A stretch of DNA of 39,868 bases. Origin: Planctomycetota bacterium. GTDB lineage: Bacteria > Planctomycetota > UBA11346. A program made the position numbers and the translations under genes. The DNA is taken from contig JBBRLJ010000046.1 of the NCBI GenBank assembly GCA_038231435.1, positions 1 through 39,868 on the forward strand, read 5' to 3'. The notes below the pieces were generated by a model. It ran no database searches. It was not told where the DNA came from and worked only from the letters and a program-made list of their open reading frames with translations. Below, piece after piece: positions 28,049 to 34,491 of this stretch. Each line of letters begins with the position of its first letter. Positions within the stretch are counted from its first letter, which is position 1.

Positions 28049-28957
28049 ATGGACGCGATCATCAACCCGCACGTCGCCCTGGCCATCCTGGTTGCGATCG
28101 TCGTGTCGCTCCTGCTGAATCTCCTCGTGTCACGGTGGAGTTCGCTCCCCGCGCTCGCCGGTCCCGTGACGTTCCTCGCCTACGCCGCCGGACATGTCGC
28201 GCTCAAGGGCTGGCCGCTGCTGCCGCCGAAGAACGTCATGGAATGGCCGGTATACCTCGCGCTCGGAGGCGCGGTCGTGCTCGGTTTCGCATTCGTGATG
28301 CTCAAGCGCTCGCCCCATCCGTGGGCCACCGCGAGCGCCAACATGGTCGCCATGGGCATCCTGTTGGCCGTCCCCCCGTTCCTCATCCTACGCGGTCTCG
28401 CCGACTACCGGCACGGCGGCCTCTCGCTCGCGGTCGTGGTCTTCATGGTCGGGACCAGCCTCGCCGCCTGGTGGTGGGAGCGCGCCTGCGCGGCCTGGAG
28501 CCCGTTCGTCGGCCGACTGATCCTCACCGCCGTCACCGTGATGTCGGTGGGCGCGCTCCTGCTCGCCGGTTCGTTCGAGATCGCGCAGCGCGGCATGATC
28601 CTGTCCGCCGCAGCGGGCGCGCCGCTGGGAGTCGCGTGGTGGCGCGATCGCGGCACCGGCGCGGCCATGGCCGCGGCACACGGAAGCGCGTGGATCTGGC
28701 TGCTCGCCTACGCGCTGAGCTCGCTCGATCCCGCGCACGGCGATCCATCGCCACGGGCCGCCTTCGCGCCAGCGATGATCCTGCTCGCCCTCGCGCCGCT
28801 CGCCGCCCTCGCAGCGCGGCCACTGGCGGCGACGCGCCCACGCCTGGCGGCGACCGCCGCGGTGCTCGCGACGCTGCTGGTGGCGGGCGGAGCCGTGGCG
28901 TGGGTGTGGGTCCGCGGCCAACCAGCGGCGTACGCCGCGGATGCGTCGGAGTACTAG
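28049..28957 (+). CDS. Hypothetical polytopic membrane protein
   Basis: About 9-10 hydrophobic segments; AGGAG SD; no recognisable family motif. Confidence 0.75.
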   Translation: MDAIINPHVALAILVAIVVSLLLNLLVSRWSSLPALAGPVTFLAYAAGHVALKGWPLLPPKNVMEWPVYLALGGAVVLGFAFVMLKRSPHPWATASANMVAMGILLAVPPFLILRGLADYRHGGLSLAVVVFMVGTSLAAWWWERACAAWSPFVGRLILTAVTVMSVGALLLAGSFEIAQRGMILSAAAGAPLGVAWWRDRGTGAAMAAAHGSAWIWLLAYALSSLDPAHGDPSPRAAFAPAMILLALAPLAALAARPLAATRPRLAATAAVLATLLVAGGAVAWVWVRGQPAAYAADASEY

Positions 28958-29040
28958 CCGGGAGCGCGGTATTACCCGCTATTTCCGCGCGCTGCAGAGC
29001 TGGTCCTTGTCCCCCTCCCCCCCGGGATAAAACCCCTCGC

Positions 29041-29691
29041 ATGCACACCATGTGCCAGATCTGCGCCAAGCGTCCGGCGACGACGCACCTGACCGAGCTG
29101 GCGCCGGCTGGCGGCCGCCGCGAGCTGCACATCTGCGGCCAGTGCGTGCACGCCATGGGCCTGCATCTCGAATCCGGACCGCCCGCGATCGCCACCATCC
29201 TTGAGCAGCAAGGCGCCGACACCGCGATCCAGATCGACATCGACGTCACCACCGCGGCGGGCGGATCCGGCTCGGCCGCAGGCGCGGCGGCCGAGGAAGG
29301 CGCGGATCCGGTCTGCCCGGCCTGCGGCCTGACCATGTCCGAGTACGCGTCGAACAACATCTTCGGCTGCAGCAACGACTACCACGCCTTCGGCGAGAAG
29401 CTCGAGCACCTGCTCAAGCGCTACCACGGCGCAACTCGCCACGTCGGCCGCGGCCCGCTCCGGCCGGCCACCGCCGTCACCGCCGCGGTGGTGCCCGCGA
29501 AGGGAACCTCGCAGCGGCGCAAGCTCGAGAGCGCGCTGAAGGATGCGGTCGCGCGCGAACGCTACGAGGACGCCGCCGCGATCCGCGATCAGCTGCGCAC
29601 GCTCGAGGATCGTCACCGCGCCCAGCCGACCGCCCCCACTCCGGACACGTCAGGTGACAAGCCAACGGACGAGCCGGGCGGCGGTGCATGA
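29041..29691 (+). CDS. mcsA: McsA (protein arginine kinase activator, zinc finger + UVR domain)
   Basis: CQIC, CGQC, CPAC, GCSNDY, HG..RHVG, C-terminal AV.RERYEDAAAIRDQL; stop overlaps the mcsB start. Confidence 0.9.
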   Translation: MHTMCQICAKRPATTHLTELAPAGGRRELHICGQCVHAMGLHLESGPPAIATILEQQGADTAIQIDIDVTTAAGGSGSAAGAAAEEGADPVCPACGLTMSEYASNNIFGCSNDYHAFGEKLEHLLKRYHGATRHVGRGPLRPATAVTAAVVPAKGTSQRRKLESALKDAVARERYEDAAAIRDQLRTLEDRHRAQPTAPTPDTSGDKPTDEPGGGA

Positions 29692-30743
29692 CCACGGTCA
29701 CCGATCTGGTCGGACGGCACTGCAGCTGGCTCAACAGCCCCGGCGACCACGGCGGCATCGTGGTATCGAGCCGCATCCGCTTGGCGCGAAACCTCGCCGG
29801 AGTCGCGTTCCACCGCAAGCTGTCGAAACCGCGCCAACAGGAATTGATCGATCGGCTGATCGCCGCCATCGCCAAGGCCGCGCCCTGGCGCGAGTCGCTG
29901 GTGGCGCACGTGCAGCGCCTGAGCGACGCAGAACGCCTGGCGCTGGTCGAGCGGCAGCTGATCTCGCGCGACATCTCCTCGGGCAAGCGCCCAGCTGGCG
30001 TGTGCGTGAGCAACGACGAGATCTATTCGGTGATGCTCAACGAGGAGGACCACGTCCGCCTGCAGGTCATCCAGTCGGGGCTGTCGCTCAGCGCCAACCT
30101 CGATCTCGCCATCGCGCTCGACCAGGCGCTCGAGCGCGAGGTCGAGTGGTCGTACCACGACGTCTACGGCTACCTCACCGCCTGCCACACCAACGTCGGC
30201 ACCGGCATGCGCGCCTCGATCATGCTCCACCTGCCGGCGCTCACCGAGACCGGCGAGCTCAAGCAGGTGCTGCGCGCGTTGTCGAAGCTGCACATGACGG
30301 TGCGCGGCACCCATGGCGAAGGCAGCGAGGCGGCGGGCCACTATTACCAGGTGAGCAACCAGCGCTCGCTGGGGCTTGAGGAGCGCTCGATCGTCGACGC
30401 CATCACCGAGACCGCCGAGAAGATCGTCGCCGCCGAACAGATGGCGCGCCAGGCGCTGCTCGACAAGGGCCGCGTGCGCCTCGAGGACAAGGTCCACCGT
30501 GCGTGGGGCGTGCTCACCAACGCCCGCAGCCTCAACACCGAGGAGCTCACCGAGAACATCAGCTGGGTGCGCCTGGGCGTCGCGTTGCGCGTCCTGACCC
30601 AGCCGAAGTGGGCGATCCTCGACAAGATCTTCCTGCAGTGCCAGCCGGCCCACCTGCAGCTGCTGCACACCGATGCCGAGGATCCGCAGCGCAGGGATCC
30701 GCTTCGCGCGAACCTGGTGAGGGAGTGGCTGTCGACTAATTAG
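29688..30743 (+). CDS. mcsB: Protein arginine kinase McsB
   Basis: SSRIRLARNL, LVERQLIS, NEEDHVRLQ, GYLTAC.TNVGTGMRAS, VRG..GEGSE, QVSNQ, QPAHLQ. Confidence 0.95.
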   Translation: MTTVTDLVGRHCSWLNSPGDHGGIVVSSRIRLARNLAGVAFHRKLSKPRQQELIDRLIAAIAKAAPWRESLVAHVQRLSDAERLALVERQLISRDISSGKRPAGVCVSNDEIYSVMLNEEDHVRLQVIQSGLSLSANLDLAIALDQALEREVEWSYHDVYGYLTACHTNVGTGMRASIMLHLPALTETGELKQVLRALSKLHMTVRGTHGEGSEAAGHYYQVSNQRSLGLEERSIVDAITETAEKIVAAEQMARQALLDKGRVRLEDKVHRAWGVLTNARSLNTEELTENISWVRLGVALRVLTQPKWAILDKIFLQCQPAHLQLLHTDAEDPQRRDPLRANLVREWLSTN

Positions 30744-30779
30744 TCGGGGGCTCTGCCCCAAACCCCACGAAATTTGTCG
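30740..30779. repeat. Structured intergenic repeat, partial copy E (terminal part only)
   Basis: TTAGTCGGGGGC-TCT-GCCCC..CCCCACG..TTTGTCG matches the reverse complement of the 3' ends of copies A-C. Confidence 0.7.
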
Positions 30780-30863
30780 ATTACGGCGGCTGCCGCCTGG
30801 TGGGCGGACGTTACGCGTTCAGCTCATCGCTTCCCGCGTCGATGCAGATGGTGACCATCAGGC

Positions 30864-31559
30864 ATGTTCACCGCCTTCACCGACTCTGCGCGCAAGACCA
30901 TAACCCGTGCGATGCACGCATCGCAGCGCCTGCGCCACGACCACATAGGCTCCGAGCATCTGCTGCTGGGCCTGCTCGAAGAGCCGGACGATATGCTCGC
31001 AATGGCATTGACGAATCTGGCGCTGGACCGGACAGCAGCGCGCCGACAGATAGAGCTGCTGGCGGGGGTCGGAAAACACCATGAGCAGATGGCTCCCCTA
31101 CCGTTCACGCCACAAGCCAAAGCCGTCCTCGAACGCGCCATGGAAGCGTCTCGCTCTCTCGGACATCATTACATCGAGCATATGCACCTGCTGCTCGGGG
31201 TGATCGGCGACACCGACAGCATCGCGACTGAAGTCCTGACATCTCTAGGTGCCACGCCCGAGCGCGTGCGCTCCGAGATCCTCGAACTTGTCGGTCAGAC
31301 CGCTCAGCCCTCACATACAGAGAGGCCTGGTCTCGTGCTCAGCAGCCCTGGGGTCAGCGAAGCGCTCGTCACCCTCCAGGGCGTGGACAGACCGTTGCCA
31401 GCCACCATCGGCGCGGCTCTGGATGGAGCGTCGTCGGTGGAATTCGGGTTCGCGATCCCTCGTGCGGCGCTCGAACGGATGCTCGCGGTGACGCCGGAGG
31501 GTGGGTCTGCACAGGGACGCCTGACGATCACGAACATCGGAACCAATGGGGAGCGCTGA
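30864..31559 (+). CDS. Stand-alone Clp protease N-terminal (double Clp-repeat) domain protein with an unknown ~85-aa C-terminal region
   Basis: Residues 1-144 align without gaps to the ClpC N-domain downstream (about 70/144 identical by manual count); no Walker motifs. Confidence 0.85.
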   Translation: MFTAFTDSARKTITRAMHASQRLRHDHIGSEHLLLGLLEEPDDMLAMALTNLALDRTAARRQIELLAGVGKHHEQMAPLPFTPQAKAVLERAMEASRSLGHHYIEHMHLLLGVIGDTDSIATEVLTSLGATPERVRSEILELVGQTAQPSHTERPGLVLSSPGVSEALVTLQGVDRPLPATIGAALDGASSVEFGFAIPRAALERMLAVTPEGGSAQGRLTITNIGTNGER

Positions 31560-31576
31560 TGGAGGCCTAACAGAAG

Positions 31577-31592
31577 TGGCACCCCTTGTGCT
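31577..31592 (+). promoter_or_regulatory. Possible sigma54 (-24/-12) promoter upstream of clpC
   Basis: TGGCACCCCTTGTGCT: GG-N10-GC with a TGGCAC -24 element, but the -12 is GTGC rather than TTGC. Confidence 0.35.
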
Positions 31593-31755
31593 TTCTTCGA
31601 CAAACCGGGTCATCCTGGCTCGGGGAATCAGCTTGCAGGGGTGGCCCGCGAACCTGCAATCCGAGCGTGCGGGCCCAATGCGGCGGCCCGTACGTGCAAC
31701 CCTCGTCCGCGAGCGGCTTTCAAACTACGGCGCCGACGGTTTCATGGCCTGGTCA

Positions 31756-31784
31756 GTGACACCTCCCCCCGCGTCCGGTATACT
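31756..31784 (+). promoter_or_regulatory. Putative sigma70 promoter of clpC
   Basis: GTGACA-N17-TATACT. Confidence 0.6.
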
Positions 31785-31917
31785 CTCCTGGTTAGGGCAT
31801 GGTTCGACCTGTAGTTGGACAGAGCATCCCGACTCCGGTTTTCGGTCTTCCCGCATCCTCGGCCGCGCACATCCTCAGCACATCCCCTCGAGCCGCATAG
31901 GCAGGTAGCCAAGCACC

Positions 31918-34491
31918 ATGTTCGACAAGTTCACCGACCGCGCCCGCAAGATCATCGCCCTCGCCCAGAAGGAGGCCGAGCGGTTCCGCCACGACTACAT
32001 CGGCACCGAGCACCTGCTGCTCGGCCTGGTGAAAGAAGGCAGCGGCGTCGCGGTCACCGCGCTCAACAACCTGAGCGTCGATGTAGAGAAGGTTCGCCGC
32101 GAAGTCGAGAAGCTGGTCGTCACCAGCGACAAGTCCGCTCCGTCAGGCCCGCTGCCCTTCACCCCACAGGCGAAGCGCGTGCTCGAACTCGCCTCGGAAG
32201 AGGCCCGCGCCCTCGGCCATCCCTACATCGGCACCGAGCACATCCTGCTCGGCCTCCTGTCCGAGCAGGATTCGGTCGCCGCGCAGGTGCTGATCAACCT
32301 CGACCTCAAGCTCGACGACGTGCGCAACGAGATCCTCGACCTGCTCGGCGCCTCCGACGTCTCGAAGATGCCCGGCTCCGCGCCCGCCTCGTCCGAGAGC
32401 GGCAAGACCGCGGCCGAGAAGCCCACCAAATCCTCGAAGAAGTCCGAGGAGTCCGCGACGCCCGCGCTCGACGCCTTCGGCCGCGACCTCACCCAGGCCG
32501 CCGAGGCCGGCGAGCTGGATCCGGTGATCGGCCGCGCCAAGGAGATCGAACGCCTGTGGCAGATCCTCTGCCGCCGCACCAAGAACAACCCGGTGCTGCT
32601 CGGCGAGCCAGGCGTGGGCAAGACCGCGATCGTCGAGGGCCTGGCCCAGTCGATCGTCAAGCACGAGGTCCCCGACCTGCTCGCCAACAAGCGCATCATC
32701 TCGCTCGATCTCGCCTCGATGGTCGCCGGCACCAAGTACCGCGGCCAGTTCGAGGAGCGCATCAAGGCGGTGATGAAGGAAGTGAAGTCGGCGAAGAACA
32801 TCATCCTGTTCGTCGACGAGCTGCACACCCTGGTCGGCGCTGGCGGCGCAGAAGGCGCCATCGACGCCTCGAACGTGCTCAAGCCCGCGCTGTCGCGTGG
32901 CGAGATGCAGTGCATCGGCGCGACCACGCTCGATGAATACCGCAAATACATCGAGAAAGACGGCGCGCTCGAGCGCCGCTTCCAGTCGATCATCGTCAAT
33001 CCGCCGTCGACCGACGATGCGATCAAGATCCTGATCGGCCTGCGTGACAAGTACGAGGCCCACCACCGCGTGAAGATCACCGATGAGGCAGTGGCCGCCG
33101 CGGTGAAGCTCAGCGACCGCTACATCACCGGCCGCTTCCTGCCCGACAAGGCCATCGACGTCATCGACGAGGCCGGCGCCAAGCTGCGCCTGAAGGCCAC
33201 CTCCAAGGCTCCGGCCTACAAGGATCTCGAAGCCGAGATCAAGGAACTCGACAAGTCCAAGTCCGAGGCGGTGCTGAACCAGGACTATGAGAAGGCCGCC
33301 GAATTCCGCGACCGCGCCGAGAAGAAGAAGAAGGAGCTCGCCGATCTCAAGCGCAAGCACCTCGAACAATCGAAGGAGCTGTGCGGCACCGTCGACGAGC
33401 ACCTGGTCGGCGAGATCGTCGCCTCGATGACCGGCATCCCGCTGCAGCGCCTCGACCAGGGCGAGGCCGCGCGCCTGCTCGAGCTCGAATCGCATCTGCA
33501 CAAGAAGGTCATCAGCCAGGACGAGGCCATCAAGGCCATCGCCCGCGCCATCCGCCGCTCGCGCTCCGGACTCAAGGATCCCAAGCGCCCGGTCGGCGCG
33601 TTCATGCTCGTCGGCCCGACCGGCGTCGGCAAGACGCTGCTGTGCAAGGCGCTCGCCGAATTCATGTTCGGCGGCGAGGAAGCGCTCATCCAGATCGACA
33701 TGTCCGAATACGGCGAGAAGCACAATGCGTCCCGCCTGGTCGGCGCGCCCCCGGGGTATGTCGGCTACGAGGAAGGCGGCCAGCTCACCGAGAAGGTGCG
33801 CCGCCGTCCGTACTCGGTCGTGCTCTTCGACGAGATCGAGAAGGCCCACGGCGACGTCTTCAACATGCTGCTGCAGATCATGGAGGAAGGTCACCTCACC
33901 GACTCGTTCGGGCGCGTGGTCGACTTCCGCAACACCGTGATCATCATGACCTCGAACGTCGGCGCCGCCGCCGCGTCAGAGGCCGGCTCGCTCGGCTTCG
34001 ACACCGGCGCGATGTCCGAGAACTACGCGTACAAGGCCACCAAGAAGGCCTACCAGACCGCGCTCGAGGATCATTTCCGTCCGGAATTCCTCAACCGCCT
34101 CGACGACATCATCGTCTTCCGCCCGCTCGAGCGCGAGGACCTGCGCCAGGTCGTCAATCTCGAGTTCAACAAGATCACCAAGCGCGTGCAGGAGCAGGGC
34201 ATCCACCTCACGCTCATGCCAGCCGCGATCGACTTCCTGCTCAAGGAGGGCTACAACCCGCGCTTCGGCGCGCGCCCGATCCGGCGCACCATCGAGCACC
34301 ACATCGAGGACCACCTCTCCGAGGCGATCCTGCGCGGCGAGTTCACCGCCGGCACCGCCCTGGCGGTGGACGTGGAGATCGACGAGAAGGCGGGGAAGGA
34401 CTCCAAGGAGCACCTGGTGTTCCGCCGCGTCGAGAAGCGCGATGAGTCGAAGATGGTGCCGCCGGTGACGACGACGGATGAGAAGAAGTAG
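31918..34491 (+). CDS. clpC: ATP-dependent Clp protease ATP-binding subunit ClpC
   Basis: Double Clp-N repeat, [14 protein letters not shown], short UVR-type middle domain, [19 protein letters not shown] ClpP-docking loop; follows mcsA-mcsB. Confidence 0.96.

Follow-up and report, generated by a model that had tools for sequence, protein, structure and literature searches.

A stand-alone ClpC N-domain gene between mcsB and clpC in a member of the Planctomycetota

Organization of the locus

The window analysed here is a whole contig of 39,868 nucleotides (JBBRLJ010000046.1, assembly GCA_038231435.1) from a bacterium of the Planctomycetota, and it encodes domains of planctomycete type. Its forward strand carries, in order, mcsA (29041..29691; UVR domain, start inferred from sequence), the arginine kinase gene mcsB (29688..30743; PF00217, E = 3.8e-57), a gene that we call gene X (30864..31559) and an intact clpC (31918..34491). 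The initial annotation had described an open reading frame between mcsB and clpC as an ATPase-less ClpC N-domain protein with a novel C-terminal region, and this was borne out. Gene X encodes 231 amino acids, made up of a Clp repeat domain (residues 1–144; 30864..31295) and a C-terminal tail of 87 rather than about 85 amino acids (residues 145–231; 31296..31556) without a convincing homologue. Residues 1–144 align without gaps to residues 1–144 of the neighbouring ClpC, with 70 of 144 positions identical (48.6%; BLASTP E = 2e-41), and RHD and PLPFTPQAK are common to both proteins. The repeat motifs were also as annotated: repeat 1 has GSEH, EHMH replaces GTEH in repeat 2, and TDS replaces TDR. 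The ATPase is absent. Pfam returned only Clp_N (PF02861; 84.5 bits in two stretches, above the Pfam cut-off), there was no AAA or UVR match to represent AAA+ domains or an M-domain, and the reading frame stops at 231 amino acids.

Gene X differs from its neighbours in composition, as had been noted from its many A/T-ending codons. ATA, CTA, TCT, ACA and GAA together account for 9.1 per 100 codons, compared with 2.2 in clpC and 1.1 in mcsB, and GC3 is 0.72, compared with 0.86–0.93 in the seven neighbouring genes measured. This places X in the bottom 1.5% of 3233 genes called by our own script, which is biased toward typical codon use. The repeat remnant annotated upstream of X was found at about 30740..30780, between mcsB and X. 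It is a short GC-rich palindromic repeat present in multiple copies in the genome (23 BLASTN matches on 19 contigs at E < 0.1), several of which lie close to contig ends.

Two trivial explanations of the locus were rejected. Contigs from sequencing runs X2, X3 and X4 (a single study, to which the possible source run X1 also belongs) contain the whole of gene X or a part of it without a single difference, and X is therefore not an assembly artefact. Nor is it an insertion element that has substituted the 5′ end of clpC, since the ClpC N-domain is intact and 100% identical to that of a genome of the same genus (G002).

A scan of positions 28900–32000 for sigma-70-like promoters found a single site (GTGACA-17-TATACT, 31756..31784, forward strand; 0.3 expected), which lies 3′ of X and is predicted to serve clpC; TATACT also precedes clpC in G002. 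No terminator-like site was found in the same scan. With the lone predicted promoter downstream of X and no terminator found, X is likely to be co-transcribed with mcsA–mcsB, clpC having in addition its own predicted promoter. The stretch between X and clpC (31577–31790) is common to relatives represented in runs X8 and X5, among them the empty-site relative described below. The part examined (31570–31730) forms hairpins, but the fold z-score is only −1.0; it gave no Rfam match, and a search of the 47 other host-family genomes yielded no real match. No leader common to partial clpC copies and their clpC genes was found. The host genome (G000, 88% complete) contains three ClpP matches, one of which (G000:C4:116649-117182, reverse strand) has an internal TAG, and gave no match to CtsR (PF05848) despite the presence of mcsA and mcsB.

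Predicted structure of the N-domain and tail

Modelling and structural comparison, suggested in the initial annotation for the C-terminal region, gave a clear answer for the N-domain and little for the tail. With a 42-row alignment, AF2 predicted the N-domain with pLDDT mostly 85–95; the fold obtained from the single sequence was poor (pLDDT 47). Foldseek matched the N-domain model to the ClpC1 N-domain 3wdc with E = 9.5e-15 and an rmsd of 1.6 Å, and rmsd values against ClpC and ClpC1 N-domains ranged from 1.6 to 2.1 Å. X is thus predicted to fold as a motor-less ClpC N-domain, that is, as a docking domain. The tail was modelled at pLDDT 32–49 as a beta-rich region, tentatively hairpin-helix-strand-helix.

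Homologues of the tail were sought widely. None was found at E < 1e-3 in 60 related genomes (weak matches had E = 0.004–0.1), in a word-indexed search at near or longer lengths, in PHROGs, NCBIfam or viral contigs, or in the ESM Atlas, where a blank is uninformative. A 31-amino-acid match to the tail in genome contigs (L117) was taken as chance, as no fitting open reading frame exists there. A search of 1.84 billion sequences returned X itself and only two repeat proteins, with PKD and PEGA repeats. These were rejected as homologues, their scores being sums over eight and six stretches with single alignments of 22–24 bits. The start of the tail (31311–31400) faintly resembles the first strands of the Ig-like PKD and PEGA repeats, at a level not significant for any one of them, and there is at most a faint hint in the sequence that the tail might be a beta-sandwich.

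Distribution among relatives

We searched 47 other genomes of the host genome's own family. Matches to X at E ≤ 1e-8 were obtained in 39 of them, one in each, and all 18 that were aligned to ClpC proved to be ClpC itself; gene X was not found in any of the 47. The gap between mcsB and clpC was at most 277 bases at all 16 family loci measured; at one further locus the flank lacked mcsB. In G002, two contig ends overlap by 127 bases, which leaves about 90 bases between mcsB and clpC and no X. Synteny is therefore not conserved, and the site is also empty in a close relative. A contig from run X8 (record 24) passes directly from position 30739 to 31577, the interval 30740..31576 being swapped for 113 other bases; its mcsB part has 18 differences in 236 bases (92% identical).

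The same run, which belongs to a different study from runs X2–X4, also yielded a fragment of an X orthologue. This contig (record 26) fully covers positions 31256..31406 on the forward strand, across the junction of domain and tail, and is 89% identical to X (16 differences in 151 bases, with no gaps). A full-length orthologue was found neither among 36 proteins at E ≤ 1e-20, where the best other protein was 49% identical and matched the N-domain only, nor in 50 metagenome loci. The orthologue fragment, the empty site in a close relative and the absence from the family genomes together show that X is an accessory gene among close relatives.

Selection on gene X

Selection was estimated with our own codon-model script, in which X was given a separate branch, under three composition settings and two topologies. 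In the three composition settings dN/dS on the X branch was 0.33, 0.49–0.50 and 0.26. It was below 1 in all six model settings (p = 6e-6 to 0.04) and 20–30 times the ClpC value of 0.015. The initial annotation had named a dN/dS near 1 and frameshifts as signs of a decaying partial duplicate; at 0.26–0.50, and with neither stops nor frameshifts, X does not look like a neutral copy. Of the 58 columns that do not vary across 30 ClpCs, X retains 41, compared with 29 of the 86 other columns (Fisher p = 1.8e-5). Differences between X and ClpC at the three codon positions amount to 0.36, 0.33 and 0.55; in a neutral simulation the three positions changed equally.

The orthologue fragment gave the same picture for more recent changes. 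Ten of the 16 differences between record 26 and X were listed; nine of these are at third positions and eight are synonymous (p = 8e-4), and in the worst case, with all six unlisted differences non-synonymous, p is 0.04. Within the tail, seven of the eight listed differences are synonymous (p = 6e-4 on the listed ones). The codon score of the tail exceeds that of stop-free dinucleotide shuffles (p = 0.003); compared with 'intergenic' windows p was about 0.4, a null that is impure because it contains uncalled genes. Domain and tail are thus both under purifying selection, which is relaxed relative to ClpC, and X very probably functions as a gene now or did so until recently.

Some of these features would also be expected of a relaxed duplicate that is in the course of being lost. 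Such a gene, formerly kept, would now do little, and the residual selection would reflect past function or avoidance of misfolding within a stress operon. The elevated dN/dS and the drift of GC3 to 0.72 point in this direction, as do the empty site of the relative whose mcsB is 92% identical, the family genomes in which X was not found, and a frameshifted copy in another member of the phylum (G059). Against it, X has acquired no stop or indel over a dS of about 1.2 from ClpC, simulated neutral copies stayed stop-free in only 8–20% of runs, with indels not even included, and most of the recent changes relative to the orthologue are synonymous. We consider this explanation unlikely.

Origin of gene X

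In a tree of 33 ClpC N-domains and X, which contained no ClpC2 or ClpC3 rows, X fell on the host-family side of a branch with support of 100/100, on a very long branch of its own. AU tests rejected none of the placements compared (family stem, p = 0.24; own genus, p = 0.098; among other ClpCs, p = 0.258). X carries 8 of 23 residues diagnostic of the host family, compared with 0–5 in 29 copies from other families, together with four non-family states at such positions. By phmmer it is closer to ClpC1 N-domains (E = 1e-29) than to ClpC2 (E = 1e-11); this closeness to ClpC N-domains and the family-diagnostic residues favour an origin separate from ClpC2 and ClpC3. Judged by its sequence, the most likely ancestor of X is a family-type ClpC, and X is likely to have arisen by partial duplication of such a clpC at this spot. 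The initial annotation is supported in so far as X appears to be an independently born, ATPase-less ClpC N-domain gene, which the dN/dS, invariant-column and orthologue-fragment data show to be under selection rather than neutral.

X is no nearer to its own ClpC than to the remaining ClpCs of the family, and the fourfold-site distance between X and ClpC (0.46) is similar to that between the mcsB genes of G000 and G002 (0.42). X may therefore be either a young copy that has evolved fast, or an older one that has been lost or moved among relatives.

Partial clpC copies in other Planctomycetota

A survey of 200 genomes of the phylum, each at least 85% complete, identified 52 with at least two ClpC-N matches (E ≤ 1e-15); positions were obtained for 46 and a further 6. 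Nine of the 200 genomes, from nine families (G038, G039, G054, G059, G161, G170, G173, G220 and G232), have a partial clpC copy on the same strand that starts 0.6–3.3 kb upstream of clpC; G110 and G181 (4.6 kb, 36% identity) were left out of this count. A quick tree of 61 rows was built after removal of 28 that were short, internal, duplicated or highly divergent; the copy of G059, which is frameshifted, was left out as well. In this tree a copy grouped with its own ClpC in six genomes, namely G054 and G170 (99–100), G173 and G232 jointly (99), G039 (91) and G161 (85). No such grouping was seen for the adjacent copies in G038 and G220. Pairwise dN/dS to the parent, a ratio that includes the parent's own synonymous drift, was 0.09–0.68 for all 16 copies tested, X among them. 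The tails of these copies vary: some have extra Clp repeats, others UVR or part of an AAA domain, and others nothing known. No literature on such clpC copies in Planctomycetota was found in sources that exclude most subscription journals.

Several of these loci have features of their own. In G059 the copy between mcsB and clpC (L031:6088-7252) has a front very like its own ClpC, a frameshift after about 50 codons and then extra Clp repeats. In G039 clpC itself is in two frames (L032:4548-6966, reverse strand), with a break near codon 200 that may be genuine or may stem from the assembly. In G044 (L034) and G057 (L036), three and four degenerate ClpC copies respectively, each an N-domain with a partial ATPase, stand in tandem away from the main clpC, and the G044 copies group with their own ClpC. 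Elsewhere a Clp N-domain is fused to a dUTPase (G048, L038:5036-5923, forward strand) or, about 5 kb downstream of the clpC start, to a Fic-domain protein (G141, L102:9625-11652, forward strand). Bare Clp N-domain genes of 145–155 amino acids, or doubled ones, occur away from clpC at L107, L108, L110 and L115.

Phospho-arginine pockets and hydrophobic groove

The ClpC N-domain has two phospho-arginine (pArg) pockets. According to PMC12583610, E106 belongs to pArg1, where T7 and R9 also lie, and E32 to pArg2; pArg1 is the pocket most relevant for activation by pArg, and the N-domain anchors the resting state through K85 and R9. In the numbering of the window pArg1 corresponds to T6, R8, T106 and E107, for which X has T, S, H and M. 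T6 is thus kept, and the changes in this region are R8S, G105E, T106H and E107M. Codon 8 (30885..30887, forward strand) has lost the arginine of pArg1 and of the M-domain contact (R9 in S. aureus numbering), and codons 105–107 (31176..31184, forward strand), GTE to EHM, have lost the threonine and glutamate of pArg1 (T105/E106 in B. subtilis and S. aureus numbering). The putative pArg2 lining is T30, E31, T82 and R84, with T30, T82 and R84 assigned by repeat symmetry; X has S, E, T and Q, and the parent ClpC T, E, T and Q.

The missing arginine of pArg2 therefore appears from the alignment to be inherited, R84 being already Q in the parent. Residue 84 (32167-32169 in the window's clpC; loci L002-L020), the FTPR-motif arginine of repeat 2, has been lost throughout the host family, where it is Q in 18 of 19 ClpCs and P in one; it is R in all 11 non-family ClpCs. 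The second pArg pocket may accordingly be weakened across ClpCs of the family.

The initial annotation had proposed a pArg decoy or adaptor with one pocket, and the decoy reading is weakened by these changes. On that reading X would buffer McsB-marked substrates, or McsB itself, through E31 of pArg2 in the manner of ClpC2, which binds pArg at a single site with an affinity of about 5 µM and contacts it through T100 and T197, in a conserved pocket formed by the start of helix 1 and loop 5-6 (PMC13345244). S30, E31 and T82 are indeed kept, and X lies directly behind mcsA–mcsB. By the offsets F96=F2 and F172=F80, however, T100 and T197 map to T6 and T105–106, so that the pocket kept by ClpC2 would be pArg1, the one that X has lost and the one described as mattering most for activation (PMC12583610). 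In the site that is left, the inherited Q84 takes the place of arginine. We regard a one-pocket decoy as improbable.

The groove residues F2, F81, K86 and E90 of X are all kept; F2, F80 and E89 are the equivalent cyclomarin-contact residues of ClpC1 (PMC10030653), and K86 corresponds to K85. Keeping four of four is unremarkable, since X keeps 73% of invariant columns. At that background the chance of losing three of four pArg1 residues is about 6% by our own arithmetic, and the loss of pArg1 may therefore be drift. Across 35 copies, groove residues were kept in 21/33 to 26/35, compared with 75% for other invariant columns. There was no convergent pattern among them, neither pocket nor groove being kept above the 75% background; the exception was R84, which shows more frequent loss (retained in 14 of 35).

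Comparison with known free N-domains

Free ClpC N-domains (ClpC2 and ClpC3) in actinobacteria blunt ClpC-targeting antibiotics and buffer substrate load, and ClpT1 and ClpT2 are plastid-specific partners of the protease core. We know of no ClpC-targeting peptide for Planctomycetota. Like ClpC and ClpC1 N-domains (PF02861; PDB 5hbn, 3wdc), X consists of two Clp repeats that align without gaps; it differs from the full proteins in having no AAA+ rings, M-domain or ClpP-docking loop and in the replacement of R8, G105, T106 and E107. Plastid ClpT1 and ClpT2 (PDB 4y0c) are likewise stand-alone Clp N-domain proteins (Foldseek E = 7e-9), but they are distant in sequence (E = 5e-5) and of separate origin.

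ClpC2 of mycobacteria and Streptomyces (PDB 8ad9, 8b9o, 9p2p; PMC10030653, PMC13345244) resembles X as a free N-domain homologue with one extra domain. The folds match (Foldseek E = 6e-10 for 8b9o and 2e-8 for 8ad9), and by alignment both appear to keep the equivalents of F2, F80 and E89 (F2, F81 and E90 in X). The extra dimerization domain of ClpC2 is, however, N-terminal (about residues 4–72; PMC10030653), whereas X starts with the Clp repeat at M1 and has its extra part at the C terminus. By the offsets above ClpC2 would retain pArg1, which X has lost. As described in these sources, ClpC2 acts as a repressor of its own promoter and shows phylum-wide conservation.

ClpC3 of Actinomycetota, as described in a review (PMC12678426), would be the nearest pattern to X, in which pArg1 is lost, pArg2 partly kept and the groove residues kept. 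It is an ATPase-less Clp-repeat protein reported to lack a pArg receptor and still to bind groove-type peptide antibiotics of the cyclomarin and ecumicin types. Unlike X, ClpC3 is reported there only in actinobacteria; X is accessory, likely derived from its own family's ClpC, located in an mcsA–mcsB–clpC cluster and equipped with its own tail. X belongs to the already known kind of free ClpC N-domain and carries a tail that matches nothing convincingly, and the pattern of birth is a recurrent one.

Possible function of gene X

The tail might itself do the work. X would then be an adaptor or allosteric modulator whose N-domain docks on ClpC, McsB or another partner, and whose tail recruits a particular substrate or partner or promotes oligomerization. 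This would fit a tail that is coding-like and under purifying selection, and elsewhere in the phylum Clp_N copies are found joined to genuine domains (the dUTPase and Fic proteins above). Of the two residues through which the ClpC N-domain anchors the resting state (PMC12583610), the lysine that contacts AAA1 is kept in X as K86; the other anchor, R8, is lost. Neither a homologue nor a fold was found for the tail, and the absence of X from close relatives is odd for a dedicated adaptor. We consider this alternative rather unlikely.

The explanation that we prefer, tentatively, is that this intact accessory gene, maintained by selection and likely a partial clpC duplicate, would act in a ClpC3-like way, its product competing passively with ClpC for the ligands of the hydrophobic groove rather than for pArg. 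The loss of the main pArg pocket residues, the absence of a motor and the unmatched tail suggest that it would soak up non-pArg ligands of ClpC. Partial duplication of a family-type clpC would have placed X upstream of clpC, where it would be expressed with mcsA–mcsB as a passenger of a stress operon. Its N-domain would compete with ClpC for unfolded stretches or groove-binding peptides, and the tail could serve self-association or partner binding. Such copies would be born repeatedly upstream of clpC in the phylum, kept up for a time under relaxed selection and sometimes broken or lost.

More speculatively, and in our view doubtfully, the slot upstream of clpC in Planctomycetota might be a place where ClpC heads without a motor are generated again and again. 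In one lineage after another the front end would be copied, its pockets retuned and a new domain added. The products would be fast-turning decoys or adaptors that counter ligands, such as peptide antibiotics or phage proteins, by which ClpC is attacked or hijacked. X would then be a decoy of this sort, no longer sensing pArg and with a new small domain gained.

X itself is confined to a few close relatives, and its function is one that we infer. The design of a free ClpC N-domain appears to have been reinvented from the front end of clpC, repeatedly within one phylum, which provides independent cases for comparing how it is born and diverges. As a natural 'pArg1-less' N-domain within an McsA/McsB operon, X may also provide a reagent for separating the functions of the pArg pocket from those of the groove.
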